A stretch of DNA of 64,000 nt, taken from positions 172,670,001 to 172,734,000 of the forward strand of contig CM097883.1 in NCBI GenBank assembly GCA_044892505.1. The letters run 5' to 3'. A program made the position numbers and the translations under genes. Of the stretch, positions 9,598 through 57,750 are shown one piece after another; within the stretch, counting starts at the first letter, position 1; every line of letters begins with the position of its first letter. The notes under the pieces are model-generated. The model did not search any database and was not told the origin of the DNA. It saw only the letters and a list, made by a program, of their open reading frames with translations. Source of the stretch: Schmidtea nova (taxonomy: Eukaryota).

Positions 9598-9895
9598 AAT
9601 ATAAGACGTTATTTCCAAAATTATATTCTATTTAAAACTGTAATATTTAAACAAATATTAATCTAAATATCGTCACTGTTTTGGCTCCAGATTTTGATCT
9701 TAATCAAAGCCAATTACCTCAACAGGGAAATCTACGACTAGATATTAAATTTGGAACACCATTGACTGAGTCAGTTTCTGTAATTGTATATGGATTTTTT
9801 GAAAAAGAATTGCAAATTACATCTAATCGCACAATATTGATTTGATTAAAAATTACTGGTTTGTTATAAACTAATTTTTAAATAAATAAGAATAA

Positions 9896-32052: not shown

Positions 32053-32191
32053 ATTGGCTAACCAACAACACCGGTTGAGTATAAATACTGAAGTAAAATC
32101 AGTATTTGACAATGTCATTTTTACTGAGTGTGAGTAACAGTAGCAACTTGTAGACAACTTGTGAAGCAGTAAATTGGAATAAAAGGTAATT
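32053..32191 (+). promoter_or_regulatory. Candidate LTR core promoter and first splice donor
   Basis: ATTGG (reverse CCAAT) at 32053, TATAAATA at 32080-32087, TCAGT Inr-like at 32099, AATAAA at 32178-32183, AAG|GTAATT donor-like site at 32186. Confidence 0.5.
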
Positions 32192-33112
32192 TCGAGTTGC
32201 ATTCTTATTGATTTAAACCCTCATAATTTTCATTGTTAATCATGATAAAATCCATAAGGTTTTCCGGAGGCCTAACAGCCTGACGGATTCTTGGGGCCTC
32301 TCAGCGCAACACAATCTTTCGGTTGTGAGGTGCTGATGCGGCGGGACCATAGGTGTTCTAAATATTTAACAAGCGGAAGGGGGAAGGGCACATCGGATAT
32401 CTCATGCCATCGCAACATCAGTATGGGTAGAAGCGATTGAAGGGCGTATCATCCGTCACGACAACATCGAGTACATGGGTTTACATAAAAGAAGTGTTGA
32501 TAGACAAAAGTGTTCAGCGTTCGTGAAGTCCAGTAGAGTAACGACGGTTTGGTGCAAAGGGTTAGTATGGAGATATACACTACATAGGTCAGGTGAGTTC
32601 GGAGGCTGACAGAGCTAGCGTCGGAGTAAAACCATGAATCCACAGGATGCCCCAACATATATACGCCTCACGAAGGGTACACAGGATAGTCCCACGAAAT
32701 ATAATACGAGCACAATCTGTACCCAATTAACCTGAGTAAGGGGTCGAACAAGTTCCCCGGATGATGTGACCATTGTTAATTGAAAATGAGGTATGGAGAT
32801 AACACCTGAGATGCGAGTGAGTATGATTGCTGTAGATATAAACCAAAATGGTCTCTGAAATGATGATATTCAAACATAATAAATGATCAAGTGATCATCA
32901 TAAATGAATACAGATCGTCATAAACTACACTGAATTTTTGCGTGGCCAAACCAGTTAAGCAACTTGACATAGTGAATACACTCAACCACATGACGATAAC
33001 ATACAACCTACCTACTATCTTGAACATCGAACCGATCTAACACTGAAACACCAACGGCAACCTACAGAGTTTTACTCTTGAGTCGAGTAGGTCGCCGATT
33101 ATAAATAATTGC

Positions 33113-33781
33113 ATGCACCTAACCAATTCATCACAATCACATCTTCTTGTCTTCAGAAAAATGATCAAGACCGAAGAATATCAAAGAAGTCCGAGCACCT
33201 ATCGACAGATGAAAATGGAAGATTATGTCGGCCGGGAACCACGACGCATCCGTTCCGTCGTCCGGCCAAGGAGGTTCCCTACCATCGAGGGAGAAGTGGA
33301 AGCCCCACGCAGAATTAGCGAAACTGCGCGTCGCCACCTACGACGGTGGACAAGACACCATATGAGTGCAGCCGCAGATGTTCCGGCTTGCGCCTTCACG
33401 ATACAATTACGATGGGAAGGAGACCCCGATTGGATGTCCACCATGGACCCTGCCGAACCAAGGACCGATAGATGGTTCTTCCAATTTCTCGACGAGCAGA
33501 GACGACCCCGCTGGGTATTGAGCAATGGAATGATGACCGGAAGGGCTCTTTTCCAATTAGGATACCTGCTGCTAGACAGGCCTCGGTGTCGCTACACTGA
33601 GGAAGTCTTCACTTATTCCAATGCACCAGGAAGTGTTTCCGTAGAACAACACCCCGAGCCCAAGGAGCTTCACCTCTGGGAGGTGTTTATCTACAAAGAT
33701 AAGCTGAGTTGGACCCAGCCCCAGAAATGTATTGGGAGAATGGAATTCGTCGCGACGAGCATCCTGCCGATCAGGAATTGA
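33113..33781 (+). CDS. LTR-encoded ORF-A, unknown function (likely start ATG 33161); second copy at 59184-59852
   Basis: 222-codon ORF, Trp/Arg-rich. ATG 33161 follows TCTTCTTGTCTTCAG|AAAA. Confidence 0.55.
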   Translation: MHLTNSSQSHLLVFRKMIKTEEYQRSPSTYRQMKMEDYVGREPRRIRSVVRPRRFPTIEGEVEAPRRISETARRHLRRWTRHHMSAAADVPACAFTIQLRWEGDPDWMSTMDPAEPRTDRWFFQFLDEQRRPRWVLSNGMMTGRALFQLGYLLLDRPRCRYTEEVFTYSNAPGSVSVEQHPEPKELHLWEVFIYKDKLSWTQPQKCIGRMEFVATSILPIRN

Positions 33782-33941
33782 GGACATTCAGTTGATTGAT
33801 ACCGAGAAAGAATGATTGTCTTAGATATTGAAATATATGTATTGGTGTGTGACGGTCTTGTTTTGTTTTGAGTGCATGAGAACAACCTAAGGATAAGGTA
33901 GAGTTGTTTAATGACGATAGGATGACCGAAAAATCAGACAC

Positions 33942-34541
33942 ATGACATATACTAACATTAATGATATATTTACAGACATGACGGAAACCAAGGGCAGAGA
34001 TTTCAAGCAAGAGGCGCGAGAACACAAGGCGCGCTCACGAGTCCTGGAGAATCGATTAAGGCAGCTGAATGAGGAGCATCAGCGGATTAAGACTACATGG
34101 TTTAACCCAGAGCGGGTTAAGTCCATCCTGCAGGCTAGGTACAGGGCAGAACGAGTAGCTGAGGAACATGCCAGAGAGATTGCAGCCCTGAAATTAGAGT
34201 TGGCGAATTATTTGAAGGTATCGACTCGCGACTTCATTACCGAACAACTACGCCCAGTGATCAGAGCTAGCACCTTTAATCGATGGATAGACACGATAGC
34301 GGTGACCACGAGCACCCAAACAGAGACCGATACCATCGCAACCACGACGATCGAATCAACAATGAAAACTCCAGCCGGTTCGAAACGAACAAAGAGGAGG
34401 AATCGCTTAGGAGCGAAAAAGCGCAGGGAAAGACGCGCATATGCAGATCGCGTAGGAATAGAGGTAGACTTGCTCAGTGGTCTATCTGAGCAAGAACTAC
34501 TAAATGTAATCCGACCCTCTGTATTATTAAACCATAAATAA
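33942..34541 (+). CDS. LTR-encoded ORF-B: coiled coil plus arginine-rich motif (likely start ATG 33978); second copy at 60013-60612
   Basis: 199-codon ORF with KRTKRRNRLGAKKRRERR. AATAAA overlaps the stop and is followed by a GT/T-rich tract. Confidence 0.6.
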   Translation: MTYTNINDIFTDMTETKGRDFKQEAREHKARSRVLENRLRQLNEEHQRIKTTWFNPERVKSILQARYRAERVAEEHAREIAALKLELANYLKVSTRDFITEQLRPVIRASTFNRWIDTIAVTTSTQTETDTIATTTIESTMKTPAGSKRTKRRNRLGAKKRRERRAYADRVGIEVDLLSGLSEQELLNVIRPSVLLNHK

Positions 34542-34932
34542 ATGTATGAAACGAATGACTTGACTTGTTTTGTTTGATTGTGGAATGTTTGAGAATTGAA
34601 TGTAGATAAAACCCGGATTCATTTAAAGCTGCAGATATCTAAAAAGTACATTACCCTAGGACACTAGAAAGGAGCATAAGTGGGACCGAAAGAAAGCCAC
34701 AGACACCTTCTATCGGTAGTGGTGGACCCGTGAATAAACAAGGGAATAGTAGCCGAAAGGTTGCTCACCTGCCTTGTCATTTCACAACGTTGACACAGCA
34801 CCAACATGATGAGTAGTTAGGGATACATCATGGGTGTCAGCGGGGGAATGTTTTTATGTTGGCGAGATCACCCTAACATATAAAATCATAAGGATCTCAG
34901 TTGTCAATCTAACCAACACACCAGCATAAATT

Positions 34933-34950
34933 TGGGGGCTCAGCCGGGAT
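34933..34950 (+). other. Primer-binding site, tRNA-Pro type
   Basis: TGGGGGCTCAGCCGGGAT matches the classical PBS-Pro TGGGGGCTCGTCCGGGAT at 16/18 positions. Starts 6 nt after the LTR end. Confidence 0.85.
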
Positions 34951-35465
34951 TAAATCGATCTTTGTGGGAAAAAGTGAATGCGATATCTGCGGACAGTTTA
35001 GAGCGCCTGAACCGGGATGAATTGAATTTAGCGAGGAAAGGTAAAGTAAATAATAACAGAGGGTTTAAGTGTCCTGAAGCAAGAATGAATCGGGTTGAAA
35101 AATAATAAATAAAAGTATGAGTGTAAAATAATGAGATTGATGAACGTGATGAAAGTATGCATGAGAATGAAAGTATGAGGACGAATGAAGCATGATGACT
35201 AGTATGTGGAATAACAGTATGAAAAGTGATGAAAAGTATGCATGACGTAAGGTAAAAGTATGCTGAAAAATGGGTATGGTATGAGTGCGAGTAACTAACA
35301 ATGATCATGTCGGGGCGACATTCAAGAACACGGGGGGATACGCAAGTAACGACGCAAAACCGAACAACAGAAAGCGAACAGTAGGGCTACCATAGAATAA
35401 GAATGATAAATAATAAAAAAAAAAAAAAAAATCGATAACAAAATTAATGAGAATTCATTCAGGGG

Positions 35466-35924
35466 ATGGAGAACAAAATAAAAGAAATGCAAACGTTTTT
35501 CGAGACAAATAACGAGACAGTGGAGACAATAACGAGAAAGTTAAAACGACTCGAGGTAGGAGGATATCACGAGCCGACAAACAACACAGAAAGAGCTGAA
35601 ATAATGATGAGCATAAGCGAGAATAAGATAACAGTGGATACAGCAACACGATATCAATGGTATAGAGAAAGATTAAACAACCCTGAGATGAATATCGAGT
35701 GCCACAGACTAGAGCAACAGTTAACAACAAAACACGATGAGTGGATAAGAATAACAACAGAACATACGAGACAATATCTGACGTGTTATATCTGTGAAAT
35801 GAACAAAATACAGATAATGTTGTTGCCATGTGGGCATTTTCGATTCTGTAATGACTGTAAAATAAATGAACGATGTCCTATGTGCAACCTTCCCGTATCC
35901 GAAAGAATAACAGTGTACTTGTAA
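35466..35924 (+). CDS. Accessory protein with C-terminal IAP/MDM2-type C3HC4 RING (candidate E3 ligase); no BIR seen
   Basis: CYICEMNKIQIMLLPCGHFRFCNDCKINERCPMCNLPVSERITVYL at the extreme C-terminus. AATAAA at 35929. Confidence 0.8.
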   Translation: MENKIKEMQTFFETNNETVETITRKLKRLEVGGYHEPTNNTERAEIMMSISENKITVDTATRYQWYRERLNNPEMNIECHRLEQQLTTKHDEWIRITTEHTRQYLTCYICEMNKIQIMLLPCGHFRFCNDCKINERCPMCNLPVSERITVYL

Positions 35925-36618
35925 TAGAAATAAAGTTTTGAACAAGTGCAGTTGTTATTGAAATTATGAGGGTTTAATAATGATTTGGTAAAAATGACCT
36001 AAGTAATCATGAGCTACTTATGAGTAGTCCGATAAGCACCCATTGGGGGGAACCAACTGATCAACTTACCCGAGATGTGTAGAAAGGGGCCAATCGCGGA
36101 TATTGGAAAGCTCTTGTGATGTGACTGATCACCACATCGTGCATCAGTGGACCAATGCGATCTTTTTATATATTTTGGTTGGGGTGAAAGGTAGGGACAA
36201 CTCAATGAGGTTTAGGCGCGCGCAGAAAAACTATAAAAATAGGATGTTAAAACTGATCAGTAGAGAAAGAGAGTGAGGAAATGAATAATAAAAGTGGATA
36301 AATGTGGTATATGATGAAAGGCACGTAATCAGCTCGCATAAGGTAAAATCAAGTAGAGAGGTTGACGAATCAATAATAGAATAAAGGGGTGTAATAGATG
36401 AACCGAGTTAATGGAAAACTCGAGGTTAAATGAATTCCTTGAAAGAAAGGAAATGATAAAAGGGGTCCTAAAGAGAAAGGATTTGCCCATAGTTCTTGAA
36501 AGATAGAACTTAACGAAACGCGACAATAGATTCTCCGAAGAAGCATAAGTGACCACTGGGAGGAACATCCCGAAGCAACACATGCAACCACTGAGAGATG
36601 ATATTTCGAGTTTTCGTT

Positions 36619-37180
36619 CGTGAGCATAGGTCTCATAGTGAGCATAGGTCTCGTCATAAAAATAACATCCTAGTGAGCATAGGTCTCGTCATAAAACATA
36701 ACATCCTAGTGAGCATAGTTCTCGTCAGTGAGCATAGTTCTCGTAGTGAGCAGAGTTCTCATTTAATAAACACAAGACCAGCGAACCTAGTCCTCATCAG
36801 TGAGCGTAGTTCTCATCAATAAACATAGCCATCGTAGTGAGCGTAGTTCTCATCAGGAAACATAATTCCTGTAGTCACCATCAGTGAGCGTAGTTCTCAT
36901 CGGGGAACATAGTCCCCAGGGCAAAGAGTTTCCATCAGTAAGCAAAACCCTCATAACAACCATGTTTTGCCAGTGAGCATAGTTCTCGTTAGTGAGCATA
37001 GTTCTCGTCAGTGAGCATAGTTCTCGTCAGTGAGCATAGTTCTCGTCAGTGAGCATAGTTCTCGTCAGTGAGCATAGTTCTCGTCAGTGAGCATAGTTCT
37101 CGTCAGTGAGCATAGTTCTCGTCATTGAGCATAGTTCTCGTTAGTGAGCATAGTTCTCAGCTGTGAGCATAGTTCTCGTT
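36619..37180 (+). repeat. 19-bp repeat family AGTGAGCATAGTTCTCGTC: about 9 dispersed copies, then 11 tandem copies (36972-37180)
   Basis: Direct counting. Confidence 0.95.
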
Positions 37181-37504
37181 CGAAATAAAATATTGAGTAA
37201 AAGCCCACGAGAAAGACGACGAAGTGAGGCAGATGAGGACTAAATTACGTATAAAACTATCCGGATAGTGAAGATCAACAAGCGATAATAGAGATGAATA
37301 AGTGACAATGAGGATAAATGATGAATAGTGAAAATGAATAGCGAATAATGAGGAATAAGGGTTGAAAGAAACCGAGGTAATAATGAGAGAGTTGAAGGTG
37401 CGCACCTGGGTATTGATAAATGCGAGTAAAGCTGATTATGTGGCCTAATGATGTTAAAGTATGCATACAGAGGAGTAATAAAGTAAAGTGAGTAAGTGGA
37501 GGGT

Positions 37505-37966
37505 GCTGACTGGAAAACCCAGCAGACCATGAGATTCGATGGGAATAAAATGAAACCGGTTTGTTAAGACAGGTAAAGTGGTAAAGACGCTAGCTGGAAA
37601 ACCCAGCAGGTCAATGATAACGATCAGGAAAGATCGAGATAACAAAAGTGAGTAATAATAAAGTGGTGAAATTGAGGACGCTGACTGGAAGACCCAGCAG
37701 GTCAAAAGTGATGATCATCGGAGTAAAGAGCAGGTAAAAGTCGACAGTGAAGAGATAAAGGATGGATAATAAGAGCGCTGACTGAAAAAACCCAGCAGGC
37801 TAATGAAACGACAAGTGAGGTCGAGAATAATGAAACAGAAGTAAAAGGTGAAATTAAAAGCGCTGACTGGAAAACCCAGCAGGCTAATGAGATAATGAGT
37901 GAAGTTGAGAGAAATAAAGTCGAGATAAAAGGTGAGATTAAAGGCGCTGATTGGAAAGCCCAACAG
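37505..37966 (+). repeat. Six regularly spaced copies of a 21-nt hairpin motif GCTGACTGGAAAACCCAGCAG
   Basis: Starts at 37505, 37589, 37680, 37777, 37862 and 37946 (period 84-97 nt). Confidence 0.92.
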
Positions 37967-38531
37967 GCCAACGAGAGATGTCAGTTGAATTAAAGGTGGG
38001 TGGAGATGAGAATTGAAATGAAGTAGTAAACGTAGTGTGAATAGGAAATAAAGCGAATAGTCGAGAAACAGAGTAGTCGACAGATAAGGGGAAATTAGAA
38101 CTCAGAGCCAGAGAAGCCTGAGAAAAGTAAAGGGGATAATAAGAGCGCTGAGCGACAAAGTAATTGGGGAACTGGGGAAAAGTAATTGGTGTATTTGATA
38201 AAGAATAGATAATTGATGCGACTGCATAGATAATTTAAATAGACTTAAAATCAAGGGAAATGGGAAAAATGGGGATCTTCATGAATTATGACTACACCCG
38301 TGAGAGGGACGAGAAACACGATAACGGGGACGTATCGTGTAAGTGATTATTTGTTTTAAGGAAACAAATCAATCAAGCAATTCAAAGCAATCTAGCAGTC
38401 AGAGCAATCAAAGGAAACAAATCAAAGAAGAAGCAAAGCAAAAGCGGAGTAGAAAATCAGTTGAGAATATAAGAAATTGAGGAATAGACAAAATTGAGGG
38501 ACGAGAAACAAGATCAGGTATAATACCAATC

Positions 38532-41500
38532 TTGACAGAAGCAGAAAGAAAAGCAGCAAAAAGAACAAGAACAGGTAACAAGCCTAAGCAACAAAAGAAC
38601 AAACAAGTAGAGATCAGCGATAATTCGAGTAATAAAGAGAATCAAGAAGAAACCCCAGAGGATCCAGAAGTACGAAACGAAGTAGAAACGATAGACAGTG
38701 AACTAGTCAGGGAAAACAGAACAAGAAGCGAATCAAGAGATAACGAAACAGAGAGTAGCGAAGAAGAAGAGTCGAATTCAGAAACAAGTGGTGAACTAGA
38801 AGCAAAGAAAACTAGTACAGTATTCCAAGACAGTGGAATCGGGATGAGTGAACACAGAGAGGATCTGAGAGAAAAATTCAAGGGCGAACCATTCAATGGA
38901 GACGCCAGTAGATTGGATACGTTTCTGAAGGAATTTGGCATATTTGTGGATATATGCGGATGGAGTGCAGAAACGTTGGCAAATCGAATCCCGCTATACT
39001 TGAAAGATAGCGCATTGGATCTGTATATCGAAAAGAGATCGGGAAGTAATCCACCCAGAACGTGGGAAGAGATCAAGGAGTTCTTCCAACAGACGTTTGG
39101 GATAAACAAAGTGCTGAATGAAGCATTCGATGAGTTTTCAGCAAGAAAACAAAGGAGAAACGAGTCAAATGCGGTGTACGCAAGCGAATTAAGAAAGTTG
39201 GCGAAACTGGCGTTCAATAGAGGAAGCCCAGTAGACGAAGAATTGATGACAGCGTTATTCGTACGAGGTCTCAGGAGACCTGACATCAGAGCACAAGTGG
39301 GATGCAAAGGATGTAAAACAGTAGATGAAGCGTTGGAAGCAGCCAACCTATTCGAATTGCATATGGCAATGAATGACATGAGAATTACGGCGGTAATGGG
39401 AAAAACGACAGAAGATGAAGAACAAGGAAAAAGAAACATGAATCAAAGTATTCCCCATTCGCAGAGATTGTTCAAAGAACCGCCAGCGAGGAAGAATAAC
39501 GGATATATCACGGTGAACACGAGTGGAGGAAATAGTTATAATGACAGGCAGAATAGGCAATGTCAGACGTGTGGGAAAAACGGACATTGGCAACAAGATT
39601 GTTTTCAGAATGTAGCCTGCAAACTGTGTGGACAAAAAGGTCACTCAGAGAATCGATGTTATGGGAAAACGTGTTACACATGTGGAAAAACCGGACACAT
39701 GTCAAAAGACTGTAATCAACAGAGAAGTTGGGCAAACAGTGGAAATAGACCGAATTACGGGAATCGACCAAGCTATGGGAATCAAGGTCAACAACGGAAC
39801 AACCCAAACAGCAGTGCAAATGAAGCCAGTATGAAAGAAGCTAAGTTGAGACAGGAGGTATCCAGATTACACGAGATAATCGAAAGCATGGCAAAGGGAA
39901 GCCAACAAGCTGCTCAACCAAAGATAAACATGATCCAGTTAATAGAAGCTGAGGCCGAAAGAGAAAACAGAGAAAGCCAACAGAAACATAATCAAGAATG
40001 GGCTAGAATACGACGAGAAGAAGAACAAGTCAGACAGCAACGATTACAACAGTTAAAAAATGGAAATCCAAGGATCAACATGATGCGAGCAATGATGGAA
40101 GAGAAGCAGCAAGATGAGTCAGACGAGTTAGAAGTTAAAGAGAAAAGAAACGAAGAGCAGAAAAAAGAAGAAGTGAATCAGGAAATAGAAACTGCGGAAC
40201 AGAGTAAAAAAGATGAAGAAACAGAAAAAGAAGCGAATCAAGAAGAGGAAGTGAGAATCAAACAAAGAGGAATGATAGTGATCATGCCGAATGATCATTG
40301 GTTTCGATTCAAATACGATGTAAAAGAAGAAGTGGGAAGATTGTTCAAGAAAGTAAATGAGATGATTCCGGGAGTGATGAAACTGCCCAGAGAAGCCTTC
40401 CTACAAACAGAAGACTTACCGGAAGTAAAGTTAAAGATGACTGATATATGGGAAGATATGGGAGTAACGGAGACGAAAATAAACGTGATGATCATCAGAG
40501 AGGTGGAACCGGAGAAAATCCCACCACCTGTGAAACATCAAACTCGGATCAGTCGAATATTCAAAGGGAAAATAAGACGAAGACGGCTGGAAGAAATAGA
40601 CGAGTTAGAAAAGAGAATGGGAAAAGCTGAAATAACGGGAAACGAGAATGAACTAATACAAGAAGTTAGCAAAAACGAAGCGAGACCAACCGCGCATATT
40701 GGGATGCTGAGACACCCAAGACAAGAGTTGTCAGATGAGGAAGACGACAGCGAAGTTAGCAGTCTGGTAGGAGACATGCTAAAGGAACCAGAAAACGAGG
40801 ATAAAAAGATGGAAGTAGTCGAGACGATAGAAACGATGTCAGTAAAGGAAGAGGAAATTCAGAAGCTGATGGATAACGCGTTGGAAGTAATCCATAACGA
40901 GGAGTTTATCGACGGGAAACGATATAGAAAGTTTATACGAGCAGTATGGCAGACGAAGTATAAAGAGTGGTTACAAGAAAGAGAAGTGAGGGTAATACAA
41001 GAATTCATAGAGAAGTTATTGAAAGAGCCACTGAACGAATACGTAATACAAATATGGATAAACGAGTGTTCACCAAGAATCTGGATAAGGAACCCAATGA
41101 CGGATGGAATTTACCGATGGGTTGAGGACAGATTGGGAAGCTCGTACCAAGACAAATTCATATATTCGGAAAACGGATTGGTGAAAAAAGGAACGCATAT
41201 GATAGACACAGGCATCTGGCCAGGAGAAATAACAACGCTATCTATATGCAACACCAAGAAGGAAGAGAACTTACAGGGAATCGTCAAAGAAGCGAATACG
41301 TGTTATGAGATGAGAATAAAACCTCAGTTGATGGAGGCAAAGGAAAGAATCTTGGCGGAGAATTTGAATACGATGATAGAACAGATCATCCAACAAATCA
41401 AGAAACATCGAAAGGAATTGACGAAAAACGAGTATGAGAATTTGAAACAGTGTATCGAGAACATACGAGATACAAGTCAAACGAGACATTCAAATTTCAA

Positions 41501-50500: not shown

Positions 50501-51977
50501 GCTGGTGGAAGCATTGAAGTATGGACAATTCTTCAGACAAGCAGTGTATCAAGACCAACGAATGAAACAGATGCAAACGCGAATAAGAAGCAAAGTAGTG
50601 TTGTTCAATGCAAAAGCCGAGTACCAAGAGAGATTAGACGCAATCGTAGCAAAAGCACAAGAAAGATTATCGGAATTCAAGGAGAATAAAAACTCGTTGG
50701 AGATACTAGGAGCGATTACAGAAAAAGTGCACAGATATGCACAAGGGGATTATAACGAGAGCGACATAGAAACGATCAAAAATCAAATGCCAGTGGCATT
50801 CCTATTATCAAAGGATGGGAGATTGCCGATACACTGGGCATTACGCCGAAAGAAAGAAAACGAAGTGCTAGAAATAACGAAAGCAATGGTCAAGTGCGAA
50901 GCAGACATGAATACGGTTGACGATAATGGAGACACAATCATGATAATCGCAGCAAGAAAGAAGACGAAATTGAAAGTACTAAACGAGTTATACGAAGTAG
51001 GAGCAAAAATCGAAGGGAAAAATGGAAAGAATAATTCCATCATAGATATCGCAATACAGTGGAACAACTTCGAGATGATCAAGTTCATAAAGTCCATCAA
51101 GAAACAGGGTGACATCGAATATCTGGCGAATAACGTAAAGAATTTCAGTCTAACTGTAATGATACACGACATAGAGAAAACGAGAGCATTACTAACATGG
51201 GTGAATCCGATCACCAAGGAACCAGCGTTCAAGATCAATGACCATATGGAACAGAATCAGAATTGGTGTATCAGAAGCGCGTTACTAAGACACAAAAAGC
51301 CAGGGATAGTAGAAGAATTCCTGAAGAGAAGGGATTTGAAATTTACGAACAATCCAAAAGAACAGGAACGAACGGGAAGATGGAAAGACTTGTTCAGAAA
51401 ATATGTGAATGAGTGGGCAAATGCCAAAGAAAAGATCAAGCAAAGTAGACTAGAGGACATAGAACCATCCAAAGATATGGAAATACGGGAATTCGAGTCT
51501 AGCACACTCGCGGTTCAAGCGTATGAAAGATTGATTAAAGAAATTAATGTCGAGGACGACATTTTCAAAGGACCAGGGGGTGGTTACAGAGACTTCGACA
51601 ACAAAAGTAACAACGAAAAGAACAACGAAGACATTGACAACAAAAGAACAGAGGATAATGAAAAAGAAAGACAAGAAGAACCAAAGCCAACGGAAAAAGA
51701 CAAGAAAGGGGAAGCCGAAGAACGAGAAAACAATGGAACAAAAGACGAACGTACAAACTATGGAAAACGAACAGGAAGTCTACTTTTGAGACCGGAAATG
51801 TTGTGTATTGCGATATTGATAACAATCATCGGACAAGGAGAAGCCAAGAAACAATACGTCACGCTAGAGATAATCAGAGGAAACGAAGTATACGAAAGAA
51901 TATGCTGGAAAGAAAACCTGAAGAAAAACGACACGCTGAAGTGTATATTGTCAGATCTGAAGCGAGACGTCATCTAA
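38532..51977 (+). CDS. 4,481-codon Gag-(accessory)-Env-Pol-ankyrin polyprotein
   Basis: Gag capsid-like about 38886-39357; three CCHC knuckles 39561-39713; AT-hook 43071-43094; signal peptide about 43725-43790; Cys-rich glycoprotein 43791-45460; TM 45464-45550; DTG 46170; RT YIDD 47385; RNase H TDAS about 47830; IN HHCC 48474-48600 and DDE core to about 48985; ankyrin repeats 49800-50100 and 50811-51095. First ATG is at 38844. Confidence 0.95.
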   Translation: MTEAERKAAKRTRTGNKPKQQKNKQVEISDNSSNKENQEETPEDPEVRNEVETIDSELVRENRTRSESRDNETESSEEEESNSETSGELEAKKTSTVFQDSGIGMSEHREDLREKFKGEPFNGDASRLDTFLKEFGIFVDICGWSAETLANRIPLYLKDSALDLYIEKRSGSNPPRTWEEIKEFFQQTFGINKVLNEAFDEFSARKQRRNESNAVYASELRKLAKLAFNRGSPVDEELMTALFVRGLRRPDIRAQVGCKGCKTVDEALEAANLFELHMAMNDMRITAVMGKTTEDEEQGKRNMNQSIPHSQRLFKEPPARKNNGYITVNTSGGNSYNDRQNRQCQTCGKNGHWQQDCFQNVACKLCGQKGHSENRCYGKTCYTCGKTGHMSKDCNQQRSWANSGNRPNYGNRPSYGNQGQQRNNPNSSANEASMKEAKLRQEVSRLHEIIESMAKGSQQAAQPKINMIQLIEAEAERENRESQQKHNQEWARIRREEEQVRQQRLQQLKNGNPRINMMRAMMEEKQQDESDELEVKEKRNEEQKKEEVNQEIETAEQSKKDEETEKEANQEEEVRIKQRGMIVIMPNDHWFRFKYDVKEEVGRLFKKVNEMIPGVMKLPREAFLQTEDLPEVKLKMTDIWEDMGVTETKINVMIIREVEPEKIPPPVKHQTRISRIFKGKIRRRRLEEIDELEKRMGKAEITGNENELIQEVSKNEARPTAHIGMLRHPRQELSDEEDDSEVSSLVGDMLKEPENEDKKMEVVETIETMSVKEEEIQKLMDNALEVIHNEEFIDGKRYRKFIRAVWQTKYKEWLQEREVRVIQEFIEKLLKEPLNEYVIQIWINECSPRIWIRNPMTDGIYRWVEDRLGSSYQDKFIYSENGLVKKGTHMIDTGIWPGEITTLSICNTKKEENLQGIVKEANTCYEMRIKPQLMEAKERILAENLNTMIEQIIQQIKKHRKELTKNEYENLKQCIENIRDTSQTRHSNFKTDKLIAKMGKEMFKRGEISDLMITVRLPNEETRQIEVIPDSKVGEIVDVINETILQREREDEFEDDIAIKYKEHLLNERDERRAYKIGIWDNFQTIHVIRMDDVPRATPRDEERKKKRQEDVMRKLRQIVEIYRNWQMKPEWETILGELDLNRRRLTPVEKQWDNKEKCWKVKRGVYEEDPEGEDRYERNTKRICMVTRRLLPTDLDGPETAVIWAELEKQKTSELIELLRGNTRGKRQTIKGLAQFIISNGEDITNLRKVTKAIAEYKRVNEWCPEQLDDVIKKWRNKEFAEETPQKIHLRIMYPNQRKEEFWVMLTEKVKSIKEKLMYELPFHLQHQGRSLDNKLEIWLTPVQLDLMNTLTVAQIVGQPLKFKEEKKAKGSMSTPSPMKSTMTPGISSGQARTTPIKTRERTPPEAYDVDEILTDSDEAIEELTKLTQKPTANIFDRIIEMPITSPAEIDDQGVEQEVVIEMVNDSEDEQEQPQFTQEMERWLEQRANEGRDVTEETGRATRFVETGTGMEKRPRGRPKIDPATTIPKTREERRQEQWEICLRKLDKIAEIRGKEENQVCQGEEWLTKTIMDVLAIIDPELKNLWRINEPSTKARMLHNAIAPIMPELIKAKTKSNHLDWQGTTMLIKRLLNGAETDSKYLVAISYTIYNLLTLSRGSPKSSPMGRHIKNTAMIIEKEIEPYILRKGGWEKFIKENQTKEGSNVMRKKLEGVLREMENRQTMQGNGRSTLNLNSIIMMMLVWLLSTESVTTFEVFDCDQMKLGEKYSLRGTEQCKDATPVELKEIKKEQWYHVYQEAELIKTMVNECKVQKTRFAFYCGRGHYSAIVMPGTEREPIVLQGEDCEALFKHGEVTTRDKIKIRGKPGMMLQQTYYVAGRITGGEGYCQGETYPIFGVPATNLVVMDTYIVELKSYEAFFEPTTGEMKTLSMCKIDRSMCQTGMSTLVYKPKVNECQLQLLQGAKFDEIQGKTFQEEDDDDKARAKHLKEALENKRQLRPDHKEKRIEMRTTPTVLITTNQDVGMRFIKGKATLKCSTTVYETNYPGIYVSKQEVPNAKPKIDTMDIKLHLYVNNKMDFLFHRGQASLQKVYYDLINNDCILNREILKTKLAVAITNPDSAMPLLPLREGHFGRVVGEAMYVYICEKTHASLAATTQLKPGQCTNELEIDYKGKVRYVQPVTRIINPPGFEPNPFNCSNAYGPLYQKPDGKWVMFPGRTEVLAPREFELMQLSKDRQFSDVDVSNNGIYSPKDLEAARQNILFPARREALLSNIVTITGGTNYREGPNYELLLSPAHFKKATENMMKAMWGRFLIFGQMMAGILGVILIIQIVRVIITQMLACFDIYKREKKVNWKMVVGFLPFLAKTMVLHGHSKDIHRIKRLLKILAKMKGTNEDVGRKFKKIMQDEQARRQLKKERKGLWERVRGYRTQDDSSNDDDDDDDRGGQANINQIPQYTEKSAVENWRYSAPPQSMYNEPIYKAKPNMMQMMPMTSIYPIIPEGCKVKRGKSVDSLEDTHTIAVMSTNMGPILTTTVEINGREIEAMIDTGANISAIDINYIPEKNQGEIEKTNVHVIACSQETVEVAGRWFVKIKHRGAEINTYIAVIPSLSVPCIIGTDLMPDLFKEIVIDLGAMKLKDRTGKICRMKVKVASAEQIVVPARHEMMCYVKIDSTIKGDMVFEPSKKFEAKKELPMARELVTINQEGEIPINLVNFDEEDKIIYENENLGKLTPMSEIEIPDKNEKSKDELPWKIDSVLLDERQKEQLQKLLMEYKDIFAASDLDLGTCDVTLHTIPLTDETPIALRPYKLAEAQKAVAEEEVQKMLEAEVIEPSCSPWQFPVVMVKKKDGTQRFCIDYRRLNAVTKRDTYPLPDINEMLLTLQGAAYFTSLDLKSGYWQIKMKDEDKEKTAFTIGRDLYQFKKMPFGLTNAPASFQRCMNFVTHGIKQCMVYIDDLLIYSATFEDHLQDIRNVFVKLRQWKLKLKPSKCDWAKEKVTFLGHIVSAKGKEPDPRNIEKVKECPPPKTVTQIQEFLGLCGYYRKFIKDYAGISKPMQELVRQDVSFVWGGEQQAAFETLRDKLITAPILVHPDFKKPFLLATDASGYAAGAVLGQFDEEGKERVIGYYSRTFRKHEKNYSVTEREAYAIILAIKHFKYLLWGHEIYITTDHQPLIWLGQHKESSSRLMRWAMQLQEYSPFIKFKAGKANANADCMSRFTFPELVNLNALKICALIAEDLDFSELRKDQLEDEELGLISKYLKESEIEIFGKNQTLREHMQKYQHRYVIEKGWLLIQDGERRLMCLPANRRKEIMTQYHDGKLGGHMSAKKTIGRLRQKYFWPTMEDDVKEWIKNCLTCATRKNVGTKWKTPLKPMPIPAEPMATIAMDVVGPLPESLKGNQYILVVTDYLTKFPEAFAIPDQKAKTVARILVEEICCRYGTPKKILTDQGTNFMSEILDEVTNYFRIAKLRTSPYHPQTNGQTERFNGTLIRMLSNYVSKHQTDWDEYINLCLMAYRMSIHAATKLSPFQLMYGRDCNLPIDLEYQPPLSQYMEVDDYVTKFKERMQEIWKTAELNIKFYQESYKDLHDQKRNVKAHDLKVGDWVIIETPEIIPGTVKKLQRPGKGPYEITTVNENNVRVRLVNNPLVRPIYVNACRCRKIPKTATLSPEKRVMTRSQTARINMLRVQQKPQPSLEDNRREAIDIKELAKRTREIIPEWRWWLDFNILSEVRKNVMEYAKDRTAHPITRTLLEEIPQTLNLQDKDGNTALHNAIKHSGNEKVKEIVEMILEGGGEIDKVNWEGITPLMMMTIHGRNDEIIKLFGNTRSNWLTKDKEGRTFLNHAIDRANHRILKYITENATWEIDELTRGSIMKQAIRVKNSKTWRILLKWKRPEGDSWVMDCNEVFIKGENALLKHLLEVTYDPKTLAVLIARDTLRVSENPREYKLEDRKKELFGLIKKWCDKQWNPDMSFEHFYDIQKQHKEISKRYKELVEALKYGQFFRQAVYQDQRMKQMQTRIRSKVVLFNAKAEYQERLDAIVAKAQERLSEFKENKNSLEILGAITEKVHRYAQGDYNESDIETIKNQMPVAFLLSKDGRLPIHWALRRKKENEVLEITKAMVKCEADMNTVDDNGDTIMIIAARKKTKLKVLNELYEVGAKIEGKNGKNNSIIDIAIQWNNFEMIKFIKSIKKQGDIEYLANNVKNFSLTVMIHDIEKTRALLTWVNPITKEPAFKINDHMEQNQNWCIRSALLRHKKPGIVEEFLKRRDLKFTNNPKEQERTGRWKDLFRKYVNEWANAKEKIKQSRLEDIEPSKDMEIREFESSTLAVQAYERLIKEINVEDDIFKGPGGGYRDFDNKSNNEKNNEDIDNKRTEDNEKERQEEPKPTEKDKKGEAEERENNGTKDERTNYGKRTGSLLLRPEMLCIAILITIIGQGEAKKQYVTLEIIRGNEVYERICWKENLKKNDTLKCILSDLKRDVI

Positions 51978-51986
51978 ATCAAAGGA

Positions 51987-53723
51987 TTGGAGAAAGAAAA
52001 GTCATACATAATATGCGCAATAAAGCAGAGAGGAGAACCAAAAGCACCTCAAGTAACTGCATGTCAATTATATAAAGCAACAGAAGCGCTGAAAATACAG
52101 AAATGGATTGAGAAAAGAAGCGAAGAGACAACGAGAAGAACAGAAGTGGAACCAGAGAAAGGGAAGAATCAAACCGAAGCAGAAGAGGGAATCAGAAACC
52201 GAACAGAGAAAGAAAGAATAACCAAAAATCCAGCGGGCAAATTAACATTCCAACCAGAATTGATATGTGTAGCATTAATATTAATCCTCATTAAGAGAAT
52301 CATGGAGGACATAGATATCAGCGTGATGACGTTAGTAAACATCCAAGATCAACGAACAACGAATGGAAGATGTTGGGGACGAAACAATGAGGTAATTGGA
52401 ATCAGCGAAACAAGAGAAATAGTAGAGGCGGAGACAAATGAGGAAATAGAGATAACTGAAATGGAGGCAGATAGAAAATGTGAACTATGTCTCATGGAAA
52501 AAGCAGCAAACGGAAACAGACCAGGAACAAGCGAGTGTAAAGTGTTCCAAGCAAAGGAGATAATTGAGTTCCCAAAAAGAAAGAAACAAGATCAAGAAAT
52601 GATTGCGAATGAAGTAGTAACAGTAGAGATGAAAAACATTGGTCGGAGAACAATTGGGATGTGTTGGAGAAAATACATCGGAGTATCGACCAACAACATA
52701 ATACCGCAATGTAGAACGAGAGAACGAGGAATCCCGTTTCAACTAAATGGATTCGAAGTCGGACAAGCATATGAAATTTGCGTAATCCGGAGAATAAGAG
52801 AAATAATACAAAGAAGCCTGGAGTGCAAACTGTACAAGACGCCAGAGCAAATTAACGGAACGAGAACGATTGAAATGGGAAGAAGTCGACAGAGGAAAAG
52901 AAAGTCAAGAAGAATCACGACAACCAACAGTCAAGGAACTCAACAGACAACAACAGAAGGGACGACAATAGAAAACGAACCGGAATCAACAACGTTGATA
53001 ATATGGAAGATCCATAAAAAAGTCCTAGAAATCTGTTGGACATTAATGCCAAACAGTATGGGAAAGTCCCCACGAAACTGTCAAAAGACATCAAATGATA
53101 AAGGAGAAATAATTGAAGTGGAAATGAGGAAGTTGAAAACAAACGCAGAATACGAAGTGTGTGCAATCGAAGAAGTAGATGCACAAGGAAATCCACAAGA
53201 AAGGTGCGAAACCTATTACACGCCAAGGAACATAACGATAAAAAGGGGAACCCACAAGTTAGTATTCCGAGAATTGAGTCAGAAAAGAGAACAAACAGAG
53301 ACGGAGGAAATACTACAAAATCAACAAGAAAGATGGGAACCCGAGAAAGTGATCGAAGAAGTCAGACAGAGACAACAACAATATGAACAATGGGAAGCAG
53401 AATGGAAAGGTCAATATGGCGTGATGACAAACCAAAGTGAAACTCCGAAGATGAGCATTGGGAAAACAATAATGGGATTAATCAGCATGGGAGTATTCAT
53501 AGGGTGTATACCACTGATAACGATCATGATAGTATGTTGGAGATATGGCATGAGAAATAAGACCATAGCAGTAAAATGGCCAGACGTAAAGGTCACGAAC
53601 TACAACATAAAACTACCAAAAGCAGTACGAGAAGAGCTGAGAAGACGATCAAAACATGAAGAGATGTGGGTACAGATCGAGGACGAGGAACTGTACGAAG
53701 GAAAACCAGTGGTGATTGTATAA
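51987..53723 (+). CDS. Membrane protein with FN3-like Cys-containing repeats; in frame with the polyprotein across a single TAA
   Basis: Repeated CW...L..L....Y.IC.I....C..Y.T pattern. Hydrophobic segments LICVALILILI and IMGLISMGVFIGCIPLITIMIVCW. 51987-38532 is a multiple of 3. Confidence 0.7.
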   Translation: MEKEKSYIICAIKQRGEPKAPQVTACQLYKATEALKIQKWIEKRSEETTRRTEVEPEKGKNQTEAEEGIRNRTEKERITKNPAGKLTFQPELICVALILILIKRIMEDIDISVMTLVNIQDQRTTNGRCWGRNNEVIGISETREIVEAETNEEIEITEMEADRKCELCLMEKAANGNRPGTSECKVFQAKEIIEFPKRKKQDQEMIANEVVTVEMKNIGRRTIGMCWRKYIGVSTNNIIPQCRTRERGIPFQLNGFEVGQAYEICVIRRIREIIQRSLECKLYKTPEQINGTRTIEMGRSRQRKRKSRRITTTNSQGTQQTTTEGTTIENEPESTTLIIWKIHKKVLEICWTLMPNSMGKSPRNCQKTSNDKGEIIEVEMRKLKTNAEYEVCAIEEVDAQGNPQERCETYYTPRNITIKRGTHKLVFRELSQKREQTETEEILQNQQERWEPEKVIEEVRQRQQQYEQWEAEWKGQYGVMTNQSETPKMSIGKTIMGLISMGVFIGCIPLITIMIVCWRYGMRNKTIAVKWPDVKVTNYNIKLPKAVREELRRRSKHEEMWVQIEDEELYEGKPVVIV

Positions 53724-53847
53724 AGGGTGGAATATGAGTGTAAATAATAGTGTAAAAAACCAATGCATAACCGTATACGTATGGGTATAAATATTATAAA
53801 ACATAAAAACAGAAAAAAGAGAATGATGTATATAATCTAGAAAAACG

Positions 53848-54198
53848 ATGAATCAAGAAACCACAGAGATGTCGATGATGACAAGATGGAAAGTACAATG
53901 TGACCTGCTAGCCAGAACAGTAAATGAATTACAGAGCCAGTTGACGGCAAAAACGCAATTATTAACCGAGAGTTATAACTGTAATTTTGAAGCGATGAAC
54001 AAAATCGAGATCCAACAAATACAGATAAACGAATTACAGAACGAGAATCGAACATTAAATGAAGTAAACAATTGGCAAGCAGAGGAAATTGACCGATTAA
54101 CGAGACATGAAGAAGAAGAGATACCGGATAGTTGGACGAGCTGGATTGTAAATGAGATAGACGTGTATCCAGAGCCAGATTCAACTGAGGATGTATAG
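53848..54198 (+). CDS. Small coiled-coil protein with acidic tail, unknown function
   Basis: 116-aa ATG ORF with heptad-like Q/E/L content, bounded by short intergenic spacers. Confidence 0.55.
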   Translation: MNQETTEMSMMTRWKVQCDLLARTVNELQSQLTAKTQLLTESYNCNFEAMNKIEIQQIQINELQNENRTLNEVNNWQAEEIDRLTRHEEEEIPDSWTSWIVNEIDVYPEPDSTEDV

Positions 54199-54287
54199 TG
54201 AATAAGCGGAAAATTGTGTAAATACGTGTAAATAAAGAACCAGAAAAATCAAAAATATGGGGAAATTGATGTAAATATTGTTGTAGA

Positions 54288-55700
54288 ATGAGAGCAGAAA
54301 GGGAAGCAGATTACCAAACGATCGAGATTCTAAGAAGAGAAAATCGACAATGGGGAGTAAATGTGACGTGTGTAAAGTGTAAAAATCTACTGTTAAAACC
54401 GAGACAAACGGAATGTGGATGCAGGATGTGCACCAAATGTATATTACAAATAATCAGTGAAAGTGAGACAAGAAAGTGTCCAGAGTGTGACGATAAACTA
54501 CTGATCAACGAGACGAAACCAGATAAAGCAATACAAAAGGAGATCTGGAAGATAAAAACAGAATGTATAAACCAACCATGTGAGTGGAAAGGTCAAATAA
54601 TCGAGCTAAGACAACATCTGGAGAAATGTGAAAACAAGAAAGCGATATGTGAAAAGTGTCAACAGACAATAACCATCAAGCAGTCGAAAGGTCACAAGAA
54701 TGAGTGCAAATCAGAGATAATAGAGTGTCAATACTGCGAACAAAGAGAGACGAGAGAAGTAATCGAAACAGAACATCTCAACGTAGCAGAAGAGAAAGTG
54801 TGCGGAAAATTCAGAGGAATTTGTCCAAGTAATTGTGGAACCGGAGAAGAAGTGATGTTGAGAGAACATTGGGAACAATGCGAATCAAGACCAAGAAAGT
54901 GCGTATGGAGTAAACAAGGATGCGTAGTAAAGAAAACAAGCAAAGAAATGAAAGAACATTTAGAAACAGAAACGGTACAACACGCCGAGATGTTAACAGC
55001 AAATTTGAACGGAATGGAACAAACCATACAGAAACTGGGAAAAGAAATTGAATCTCAGAGGATAATGACGGAGTTATTACTGGAAACGAGAGAGCAATTC
55101 GAGCTCACCAGAGAGAAAATGATGGAGAAAATCAAAGTCATAGAGACATTGGTAAAAGAAGTAAACGTGCGACATCAAATGTGGATACGAGATACAGAGG
55201 ATATCGAGAATTTACCTGTTGCACCATATGTATGGAAAATCAAGAACTTCAACGACAAGTTCGCAGCAGCAAAAGCAGGAAGTCAAGTGTCGGTAACAAG
55301 TCCACCATTCTATCTGTGGAAAAATGGATACAAAGTTCGAATGAGAATTTATCCAAATGGAGATGGATCAGGAAAGGAAACGCATGTGTCATTATTCTTT
55401 GCGTTGTGTAAAGGTGGTTACGACGACATATTAGAATGGCCACTAGAAACAAAGGCTATAATGAGAGTGAGAAACTCGAAAGAAACAATAGCGAGAGTAT
55501 TCAAAATTGATGGTAAGCACGAAGCTTACAAAAGACCAACCACAGAATGTTCATTAGCGACTGGAGAACCAAAATTCATACCACACCAAACAATGTGGGA
55601 GATGTTGTACGACGACAACCTATACGTAGAATTGGAAATCGAAAAGAAAGCAAGTACAACAGCGATGAACACGAAGTCAACGAAAGGATGGTTAGAGTAG
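54288..55700 (+). CDS. Full-length intronless TRAF-family protein (RING, TRAF zinc fingers, coiled coil, MATH)
   Basis: CVKCKNLLLKPRQTECGCRMCTKC..CPEC; CEWKG....LRQHLEKC; YVWKIKNF..SPPFY..GYKVRMRIYPNGDG.GKETHVSLFF..KGGYDDILEWP. Most like TRAF2/3/5. Confidence 0.93.
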   Translation: MRAEREADYQTIEILRRENRQWGVNVTCVKCKNLLLKPRQTECGCRMCTKCILQIISESETRKCPECDDKLLINETKPDKAIQKEIWKIKTECINQPCEWKGQIIELRQHLEKCENKKAICEKCQQTITIKQSKGHKNECKSEIIECQYCEQRETREVIETEHLNVAEEKVCGKFRGICPSNCGTGEEVMLREHWEQCESRPRKCVWSKQGCVVKKTSKEMKEHLETETVQHAEMLTANLNGMEQTIQKLGKEIESQRIMTELLLETREQFELTREKMMEKIKVIETLVKEVNVRHQMWIRDTEDIENLPVAPYVWKIKNFNDKFAAAKAGSQVSVTSPPFYLWKNGYKVRMRIYPNGDGSGKETHVSLFFALCKGGYDDILEWPLETKAIMRVRNSKETIARVFKIDGKHEAYKRPTTECSLATGEPKFIPHQTMWEMLYDDNLYVELEIEKKASTTAMNTKSTKGWLE

Positions 55701-55789
55701 TCAGAGTGAACGACCCTGTAAATAAAGTGTAAAAATCGACGACAACCATAAACGTATAGTATAACCAGTGTAAATTTGTAAATTGCAGA

Positions 55790-56950
55790 ATGGAAAACGC
55801 AAATGAATATGTAATCGAAGAGGAAACGAGAAACGAGATGTCAAACGAACAAGAAGCAATCGAAAGAGAAATCGAAAAGAGATGTAAAATGGAAGTGGAA
55901 CAAAGAACCAGAGAATTACACGAAGTGATGACAAACAATTTCTACGAGAAACTAGAATGCGAACGACAAATGGAGTTATATCAACTAGAACTCGAGGAAG
56001 TGAATAAAGAGATAGAAAAACTGACAGCCCAAATGGAGAAGCTAAAAGGAACGAATGTACGAAGTCGACAGAAGATAGAAGAGACCTATCAGCTGATGAG
56101 AAAACAAGCAGAACATTACAAAAACATGATGAAAATGCGAAGAGAAGAGAGGGAGAAACAAGAGGAAAAGATGGAGGTAAAAATACTAGCTATCAAGGCT
56201 CAAGCGAGACATTGGAAGATGGAGTCTAAACGAGTGTATAAAGAAGCCAAAGAGATAATCAGAAAGACAGCATACAGCGAAGATTGGAAACTGTATCAAG
56301 AGATAGACGAATTGAAAGAGGAATTGGAACAGAGAAAGCGACAAGAACAAGCAAACAAAGAATGGAGTCGAAAACGACAGCGATTTATTCGAGAACAAGC
56401 AAAGGAACTAAAGAAAACGCAATGGCAAATACAGATGATAAATGGAGAAATGCGAGGTATCAGACAGAAAGAGGAAGCGGAAAGACAAAAGTTGATCAGG
56501 GAAAAAGAAAGTCTGGAAAGAGATGTAAATGGTTATCAAGGGGTGGTGACCCAAAAGAAAATGGAGTTGAAAGCAGTAAAAGAAAGACATGCGGAATCAA
56601 ACCGAGCTTACGAGGAAAACATAACGAACTTGACGAAAGAAAACGAGGAGCTGAAACAACAAATAATAACCCTGAAAGCAGAGAAAGAAACCATAGAAGT
56701 ACAAACCGAACCTACAGAAGTAGAAGCCCTGAAGAGAAAAGTGGAAGAGATGGAAAGACAAATTGAAACTCTAAGCGAACAATCAGATTACATGGAGTAT
56801 CTGTTAGATGAAGAGATACAAATCTCTCGAACGTATCAAGACGAAATTGCAATGTGGAGAAGTAGAGTGGTGTGGTTACCGTTTATACCACCACCACCAA
56901 TGGAGCTCCAAGATGAAGGGTTCCATGAACCAGAGGAGACGGATGTGTAA
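55790..56950 (+). CDS. 386-aa long coiled-coil protein with a C-terminal PPPP motif
   Basis: Continuous E/K/Q/R-rich heptads; ATG ORF. Confidence 0.7.
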   Translation: MENANEYVIEEETRNEMSNEQEAIEREIEKRCKMEVEQRTRELHEVMTNNFYEKLECERQMELYQLELEEVNKEIEKLTAQMEKLKGTNVRSRQKIEETYQLMRKQAEHYKNMMKMRREEREKQEEKMEVKILAIKAQARHWKMESKRVYKEAKEIIRKTAYSEDWKLYQEIDELKEELEQRKRQEQANKEWSRKRQRFIREQAKELKKTQWQIQMINGEMRGIRQKEEAERQKLIREKESLERDVNGYQGVVTQKKMELKAVKERHAESNRAYEENITNLTKENEELKQQIITLKAEKETIEVQTEPTEVEALKRKVEEMERQIETLSEQSDYMEYLLDEEIQISRTYQDEIAMWRSRVVWLPFIPPPPMELQDEGFHEPEETDV

Positions 56951-57023
56951 AAAGAGGCGAAAAATCCGTGTGTAAAAATGTACAAATCGATGTAACAGGT
57001 ATTAATCAGTAGAATAATCAGAA

Positions 57024-57548
57024 ATGATCTGGCTCAAAACCCTATCAATCCTAACGATTATGTTAGCTACAACAATCATGAACCTTTCGACAACCGAAAT
57101 CCAAAGAACCCTGTCAAACGAGATATCCCAAGAGATTGAAAAACAACTAAACGAAGTCAGAGAAGACTTGAAACAATTAATACGACAAATGCGAATCAGT
57201 CATGATCATCGCAAACCCTTGCAAACCCTATTCAATCAAATTGAGAAGATCCGAGAAATCCATAAAACCTTTCAAGATCACCTAAAGCCAATCAAAGGTC
57301 AAACCCAAATCGAATCCGAAATCCGAAACAGATGGATCATCGTCGGAATAGTCACAATGACAATATTGACAATCATCCTGATCATCGTGATTACCTATAC
57401 CCTATATCGAATCAGAAGCCTCAAACAACAACAAACGATAATGTGTAGATGCGCTAAAAGAGAAGCAAAAACCCAACAAAGGATGAGAAGTCATCTACGA
57501 CAAATTCAAGCCCGATACGAAATGCAGTCAACAAGTGAAAGGACCTGA
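57024..57548 (+). CDS. Small type-I membrane protein (signal peptide, helical ectodomain, TM, basic tail)
   Basis: MIWLKTLSILTIMLATTIM signal-like N-terminus; WIIVGIVTMTILTIILIIVITYTLY TM segment. Confidence 0.7.
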   Translation: MIWLKTLSILTIMLATTIMNLSTTEIQRTLSNEISQEIEKQLNEVREDLKQLIRQMRISHDHRKPLQTLFNQIEKIREIHKTFQDHLKPIKGQTQIESEIRNRWIIVGIVTMTILTIILIIVITYTLYRIRSLKQQQTIMCRCAKREAKTQQRMRSHLRQIQARYEMQSTSERT

Positions 57549-57750
57549 AAATCGACCCCTATGAGCCAGAAACATTGAACTGTGTAACAATAAAAACATG
57601 ACAATGACAATGTGTGACTTTGTATAAATGAGTATGAAAGCTACCACCTTATGTGGTTTTGCATGTAAGTTCTGTCACGAACTTTTTATGTATGTTGATG
57701 TAGGTATATGCATGTAATTGCGGGACGCAATTTTAGGGGACCCCGAGTGA

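Follow-up and report, generated by a model that had tools for sequence, protein, structure and literature searches.

The window analysed here, a stretch of 64,000 nucleotides (nt) from Schmidtea nova (contig CM097883.1, positions 172,670,001 to 172,734,000 of the forward strand), contains a giant gypsy long terminal repeat (LTR) retrotransposon of the Burro type at 31680..60997 on the + strand. This element probably expresses its seven accessory open reading frames (ORFs) and its gag-env-pol polyprotein by common-leader cis-splicing, in which a leader of ~75 nt encoded in the LTR would be joined to alternative acceptors and the resulting mRNAs would end at local poly(A) sites. The reading is drawn from the sequence of the element and of its relatives. 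Transcription would start near 32111, and use of the donor at 32186 would place the leader on an acceptor matching each of the seven accessory ORFs and gag-env-pol, thereby removing predicted introns of 1.0, 1.8, 3.3, 6.2, 21.7, 22.1, 23.6 and 24.8 kb. Unspliced RNA, which would retain the primer-binding site, would serve as the genome. The interval from the donor to the gag ATG contains 155 ATGs, so gag is unreachable by simple scanning; splicing would strip these ATGs and make every ORF start the first AUG that can be used.

Acceptor-like sites upstream of the accessory ORFs

Seven stand-alone ORFs on the + strand start within a few nucleotides of an acceptor-like site. Two of these lie within the LTR, namely LTR ORF1 (33154..33781 with its acceptor-like CAG, 206 aa from ATG 33161) and LTR ORF2 (33973..34542, CAG, 187 aa from ATG 33978). 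They are followed by a RING ORF (35460..35934, CAG, 152 aa from ATG 35466) and, downstream of the polyprotein, by an ORF of 116 aa (53838..54236, TAG, ATG 53848), a TRAF-like ORF of 470 aa with RING, zf-TRAF and MATH domains (54284..55726, TAG, ATG 54288), a charged, probably coiled-coil ORF of 386 aa (55786..56950, CAG, ATG 55790) and an ORF of 174 aa with two hydrophobic stretches (57019..57594, CAG, ATG 57024). Apart from the RING ORF and the TRAF-like ORF, no accessory ORF matched a Pfam family above the cut-off. The seven acceptor-like contexts listed in an earlier note on this DNA were all recovered, with AGs ending at 33156, 33975, 35462, 53840, 54286, 55788 and 57021, and every one of them is a YAG. 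An ORF at 52302 was considered as an eighth accessory ORF and rejected, because other copies read through the polyprotein stop and the ORF is the polyprotein tail; the seven ORFs of the earlier note are therefore all of the stand-alone ORFs.

Comparison with the background of AGs near ATGs gave a different outcome for AG and for YAG. A plain AG 1–7 nt before the ATG is unremarkable (P ~0.03–0.11 for 7 of the 9 ORF starts) and uninformative because it also precedes 336 of the 643 other ATGs of the element. YAG, on the other hand, is enriched. It was found 1–7 nt before the ATG of 7/7 accessory ORFs, compared to 126/643 other ATGs of the element and 23/152 spacer ATGs (a background of 0.15–0.23 per ATG), which corresponds to a P of 3e-5 for the seven accessory ORFs and of 5e-5 to 3e-4 for 7 of the 9 ORF starts, the window of 1–7 nt having been set after the data were seen. 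ATGs 33161 and 33978 are the second ATGs of their open frames, and use of the first ones (33113 and 33942) reduces the count to 5/7 with a P of ~0.005, calculated by hand. The T fraction at positions -20 to -5 was 0.31–0.50 for all seven sites; with the minimum among the seven as the threshold, this level was reached by 21% of the 778 YAGs in the element.

Conservation of the acceptor-like sites

The YAG was retained in 25/26 near copies at 33978 and in 29/29 near copies at each of 35466, 54288, 55790 and 57024. For LTR ORF1, 20 copies were fetched and 19 aligned, with protein identities of 59–97%. A pyrimidine run and a YAG, with CAG and TAG exchanged between copies, lie 4–7 nt upstream of the homologous start in 19/19 of these, in line with the choice of ATG 33161 in the earlier note, while in 2/19 the position mapped as the start is not an ATG. 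Position -4 varied while the AG was fixed in 13/26 copies at 33978 and in 27/29 copies at 55790. Splice acceptors tolerate variation at -4. UUNYAG (TTNYAG), in which this variable position is written as N, is the acceptor motif reported for parasitic flatworms at trans-splice acceptors in the relevant passage of PMC12582326; the motif has no power to separate cis- from trans-splicing.

Two distant full-length families in the same genome were also compared. In each, 6/7 ORFs have a YAG 0–7 nt before the ATG (P ~7e-4 and 6e-4 against their own backgrounds), with C/T swaps in the YAG and a changing distance to the ATG. The accessory proteins of these families are mostly 30–53% identical to those of the window element, and the first LTR ORF has no match. 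The counts were obtained from L144/L154 and L147/L157, leaving out the near duplicates L150/L160 and L151/L163; L069–L080 and L114–L132 consist largely of distant-family LTRs that are solo or broken, and L133 and L138 are broken internally. Taken together, the sequence comparisons make it very probable that the YAG sites are splice acceptors.

A conserved donor-like site in the LTR

The LTR contains a TATA box at 32080..32087, downstream of a CCAAT-like GATTGG, that showed 0 differences in 232 copy-positions. The predicted common leader exon spans 32111..32185 on the + strand, where the start is placed by its spacing from the TATA box, and contains a sole ATG at 32112. An AATAAA followed by a donor-like AG/GTAATT, the slash marking the predicted exon boundary, occupies 32178..32191. 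The donor-like AAG/GTAATT pointed out in the earlier note is thus in place at 32183–32191, 106 nt after the TATAAA at 32080. AG/GTA is invariant in 29/29 copies, with 0 differences in 145 copy-positions at 32184–32188 compared to 34% in the upstream flank and 38% in the downstream flank. Among the 29 near copies the donor reads GTAATT in 26, GTATGG in 2 and GTATGT in 1. RG/GTA was likewise found 106–234 nt past the TATA box in 8/11 distant TATA-bearing LTRs, including families without the AATAAA. The AATAAA itself showed 2 differences in 174 copy-positions in the window family and is absent from more distant families; the donor-like part is therefore the shared element. A structured leader or start region was not supported (z of 0.30 and -1.61).

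Copies that are otherwise 95% identical differ at 34–38% of positions across the predicted leader and the first part of the intron (32111–32215), and LTR ORF1 is 59–97% identical among copies with near-identical interiors. The hypervariability of the leader and LTR ORF1 suggests LTR exchange or escape from silencing.

An acceptor-like site for gag and an ATG-free run

An eighth acceptor-like site, missed by the earlier note which counted seven, was found for gag-env-pol at 38350..38360. Five distant copies carry TTTGTATTTTAG 516–651 nt upstream of the gag ATG, and the window element has TTTGTTTTAAG at the matching place, ending at 38360. The site is followed by 483 nt without an ATG in any frame (38361..38843). 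Whereas 6.9 ATGs were expected between the 38360 acceptor and the gag ATG in the window, none was seen. The same stretch was ATG-free in 29/29 near copies and in 4/5 distant copies, the fifth having a single ATG, compared to 7–9 expected from shuffles (P <= 0.0015 each). The 556-nt gap before gag is the longest ATG-free gap in the element, in which ATGs are spaced 40 nt apart on average. This pattern, which was not used in framing the hypothesis, is what a scanned 5' leader produces.

The ATG-free run contains a Met-free open frame of 121 codons, starting at 38481 and continuous with gag, that was open in 29/29 near copies; the corresponding extension spans 108–197 codons in distant copies. 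Silent changes made up 18 of 43 in this extension compared to an expected fraction of 0.25, a moderate excess that is weak as the upstream control gave 20/61. AAA-ATT-GA is located 2–4 codons past the opening stop in 5/6 copies compared, and upstream of a later stop in the sixth, making the ATT at 38493 a candidate near-cognate start for a longer Gag. An upstream ATG start for gag in other copies was rejected (0/29). The open frame at 38481–38843 encodes SSNKENQ in 6/6 aligned copies, which we take to resemble a KEN-box degron. In addition, a block of ~55 nt at 38478–38533 is invariant in 29 copies and not evident in distant families; a small hairpin in it encloses a donor-like CAG/GTATAA (38518), and the block may provide an additional leader donor, or else act as a signal for packaging or initiation.

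Poly(A) signals and short 3' spacers

The earlier note placed an AATAAA after most accessory ORFs, and these were present after 5/7, at 34537 (overlapping the stop of LTR ORF2), 35929, 54231, 55721 and 57589. Overall, AATAAA lies no more than 60 nt from 5/8 stops or spacers, often overlapping the stop (P 0.004 against shuffles), and none was found within 60 nt after ORF 33161, ORF 55790 or the end of the polyprotein. In the distant families AATAAA is within 60 nt of 5/8 stops each, not always of the same ORFs. The four 3' spacers measure 73–124 nt in the window element and 75–126 nt in the two distant families, and in every one of them poly(A)-like signals are followed by an acceptor.

Six TGTAHATA motifs on the + strand, at 53739, 53827, 54217, 54227, 54270 and 55717 (53739..55724), all fall within the short spacers. 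The four short 3' spacers contain 6, 8 and 7 such motifs in the three families compared to ~0.1 expected, with 0 in the 14.9-kb polyprotein region. Paired TGTA is likewise strongly enriched in the short 3' spacers (53724–57023; L154 and L157) and absent from the polyprotein. Pairs of UGUA function in 3'-end formation (CFIm), and TGTAHATA is also the Pumilio consensus as given in a passage of PMC12441121.

Proposed expression mechanism and alternatives

The earlier note had interpreted the AGs as acceptors of either an adenovirus-late-like programme or spliced leader (SL) trans-splicing. The conservation tests and the gag site support the AGs as acceptors together with a single LTR donor, and the cis reading is favoured over SL addition, though unproven. 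Support for the cis reading also comes from a cestode (a passage of PMC4558846), in which cis-splicing joins an LTR donor to a site used for trans-splicing by the sister species, donor-first priority being cited by the authors.

A number of observations weigh against common-leader cis-splicing. The four 3' acceptors require introns of 22–25 kb that span several AATAAAs and four earlier acceptors. The acceptor of 57024 is weak, the weakest of the seven, and its YAG is missing from the homologue in one distant family, while in the other there is none within 10 nt of LTR ORF1. An exact TTNYAG is present at only 3/7 acceptors, with T at -5 in 6/7, the consensus being that of parasitic flatworms, and the gag acceptor is an AAG throughout the window family (29/29). 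Conservation at the 3' spacers among near copies is weak evidence because these spacers differ by just 0.8–4%, and the distant families are not fully independent because they are related by descent. Of the distant LTRs other than the eight with RG/GTA, 2/11 have only a weaker CAA/GTACGG and 1/11 has no AG/GT in the 230 nt shown. The AATAAA is almost as conserved as the donor in the window family, and part of this island may therefore serve polyadenylation. Finally, intron-less (spliced) DNA copies were not found by five exact pattern searches of the genome, which covered a subset of the acceptors and subfamilies. One search gave 8 matches (3 controls), of which 3 were distant LTRs with an unspliced donor and 5 were unlike the element; the others gave 12 matches (11 of them within the upstream portion of a different LTR family, the remaining one unrelated), 1 unrelated, 2 unrelated and 0. 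Contigs of four runs from one study (X1–X4) cover U3, the spacers and the flanks and are therefore probably DNA; no joint starting at the donor was present among 15 joints at 51200–61200, a region with the 3' LTR copy of the donor, or among the 15 listed of 81 joints in a second set, which speaks neither for nor against splicing.

A rival explanation is operon-like processing, in which the transcript is cut at the poly(A) signals and the host SL is added at the same AGs for at least the four 3' ORFs, the LTR donor serving the near acceptors only. The 73–126 nt spacers of all three families, in which poly(A)-like signals precede an acceptor, resemble intercistronic regions, and the 22–25 kb introns would be avoided. 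An SL RNA is present in S. mediterranea and flatworm acceptors are often common to cis- and trans-splicing, as described in a passage of PMC12582326. However, a conserved donor is found upstream at 32186, so the acceptors do not follow an outron free of donors; only cleavage at an upstream poly(A) site would remove the donor. Flatworm spliced leaders end in AUG, as reported for parasitic species in the same passage of PMC12582326, but this AUG would be in frame at only 7/19 acceptors, which is chance level, and the ORFs retain their own ATG (26/26 and 28–29/29 copies). We consider operon-like processing rather unlikely; a mixture of cis- and trans-splicing is possible.

Alternatively, each ORF could have its own internal promoter, with the YAG being part of an initiator and TATA boxes located in the AT-rich spacers. 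A TATAAA is found ~60 nt before ATG 33161 (33100) and ATG 53848 (53786 and 53795), and an internal start would explain the ATG-free run before gag as well. No TATAAA precedes 35466, 54288, 55790 or 57024, however, and starts at the YAG would leave 5' untranslated regions of 1–9 nt. The fixed AG, in a setting where the following base and the distance to the ATG vary and C and T are exchanged, argues against an initiator, and the conserved donor would be left without a partner; internal promoters thus appear highly improbable. The AGs might also reflect chance or start-codon context, with reinitiation, shunting or internal entry giving ribosomes access to the ORFs on a polycistronic RNA. The strand is purine-rich, plain AG precedes about half of the ATGs, and some TAG sites of the distant families double as an in-frame stop before the ATG. 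Against this, YAG is enriched in three families, the tracts are T-enriched and the donor is invariant, while 6/7 spacers have ATGs in the 100 nt preceding the AG, which would hinder scanning, and we give this explanation very little weight. Common-leader cis-splicing can also be extended into a fuller scheme that combines an eight-way one-leader programme with near per-gene poly(A) sites, a distal cassette processed as a host-SL operon, a non-AUG extended Gag, and TRAF and RING mRNAs under Pumilio control in stem cells; as a whole this combination is unlikely.

Identity and architecture of the element

The element is 29,318 bp in length with TG...CA ends and a 4-bp target-site duplication, AGTA. 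Its 5' LTR (31680..34926, 3247 bp) contains two ORFs and is 99.9% identical to the 3' LTR (57751..60997), which repeats the promoter, the donor-like site and both LTR ORFs. A primer-binding-site-like sequence at 34933..34949 on the + strand shows a likeness to tRNA-Pro. A total of 571 LTR-end/primer-site junctions of this kind were counted genome-wide. The polyprotein (38844..51977, 4377 aa) has the order zinc knuckles, fusion glycoprotein (PF24664), protease, reverse transcriptase (RT), RNase H, integrase and ankyrins according to Pfam. The Env-like fusion glycoprotein spans residues 1902–2243, in frame between gag and pol, and the protease begins at residue 2429. A single in-frame stop at 51975–51977 severs the last 581 codons (51978..53723) from the polyprotein of the window copy, despite LTRs that are 99.9% identical; the frame is continuous past the equivalent position in L084, L088 and L125 and in the distant L154, L157 and L160.

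These features fit a Burro/GYPSM1-like element and, together with the AT-rich genome, point to a planarian host. The assignment was made by matching to the published description of the architecture (PMC6431247) rather than to the Burro1–4 sequences. At 29.3 kb, with an internal region of 22.8 kb, LTRs of 3.25 kb and a target-site duplication, the window element is slightly shorter than the ~30 kb quoted for Burro/GYPSM1, and its internal region is within the quoted limit of 25 kb. The 4377 aa together with the 581 in-frame codons past the stop fit the single polyprotein of ~4,900–5,100 aa, which comprises gag, protease, RT, RNase H and integrase. The cargo is also as in Burro/GYPSM1, with Ank_2 within the polyprotein and MATH_2 within ORF 54288, while a Pfam profile search of the element proteins gave no match at E <= 0.01 for BIR or BCL2-like motifs. 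In a protein search only distant host TRAFs were matched, at 24–30% identity.

The long non-coding region that separates the RING ORF from gag contains tandem repeats of 18/19 nt and repeats spaced 84–91 nt apart, at 36599–37200 and 37469–37970. In one near copy (L086–L088) the RING ORF is missing, as is some of the 5' non-coding region, yet the polyprotein is still open and the four 3' ORFs are present. At L123 an element of the window family adjoins an LTR of a distant family whose two-ORF solo LTRs are very numerous (9806 first-look candidates).

Surroundings in the window

A repeated flank surrounds the element at 31029–31679 and 60998–62275 and includes an ORF at 61589–62275 that is transposase-like by its translation. 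A single 2184-nt contig of run X2 spans both flanks and represents the empty-site form. The window further contains a second, small gypsy-like element on the - strand (5105–9677) that has direct repeats of 104 nt as well as ORFs for gag and pol, and a fragment at 23313–24197 (-) with the appearance of a piggyBac transposase. ORFs at 1731–5135 and 29411–30649 are presumably related to capsid-region and DNA polymerase genes of Polinton/Maverick elements or adintoviruses, and we take exons at 15299–16146 to belong to a host gene resembling an SLC3A/amylase-like heavy chain.

Relation to known systems and significance

Complex retroviruses express many proteins from one promoter through alternative acceptors, and retroviral mRNAs as a rule share a single 3' end in the LTR. 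The window element differs in that most ORFs have their own AATAAA and in its gypsy/Burro-like RT/integrase order and cargo. The adenovirus major late unit combines one (tripartite) leader with many acceptors and several poly(A) sites that give families of 3'-coterminal mRNAs. The likeness is one of logic only, as adenovirus is an unrelated DNA virus and a single short leader exon, with close to one poly(A) signal for each ORF, is predicted for the window element. In foamy viruses (a passage of PMC3694450), the major donor is likewise inside the LTR beside a poly(A) signal, and U1 binding suppresses 5' polyadenylation; the foamy donor is upstream of the signal, however, whereas the AATAAA of the window element is just upstream of the donor. 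The short spacers with a poly(A) signal and then an acceptor just before the next ATG are shared with flatworm and nematode SL operons as described in part of PMC12582326, from which the element differs by its conserved upstream cis donor and the absence of a frame bias for a leader AUG.

The likeness to Burro/GYPSM1 extends to the length of ~30 kb, the multi-kb LTRs, the accessory ORFs, a single giant polyprotein in which gag and pol are separated by env, and the ankyrins and TRAF/MATH cargo. In the window element TRAF is encoded by a separate ORF past the end of the polyprotein, while it is inside ORF1 in S. mediterranea and upstream in D. tigrina (PMC6431247). The element type is already known. 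The section on Burro elements in PMC6431247 is silent on the expression of accessory ORFs, and the three passages with "splic" shown from that paper are unrelated to Burro; the string has 0 occurrences in PMC8532177. A published account of this splicing was not found in literature searches, which did not cover the original Burro description (Grohme 2018).

Elements of the Burro type occur in large numbers in planarian genomes and are active there, and BURRO1 is derepressed on smedwi-2 RNAi (PMC8532177). No description was found, in the papers searched, of the way in which seven accessory proteins, two of them encoded within the LTR, are expressed from a unit of 25 kb. The proposed mechanism predicts eight exact junctions and, if true, would amount to complex-virus gene regulation in a gypsy element. 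As the donor is inside the LTR, solo LTRs could splice into host genes. A total of 121 MATH domains are listed for S. mediterranea in a passage of PMC6109357 and, if the mechanism holds, part of the transcripts assigned to host TRAF genes may instead be subgenomic mRNAs produced by elements of this type.

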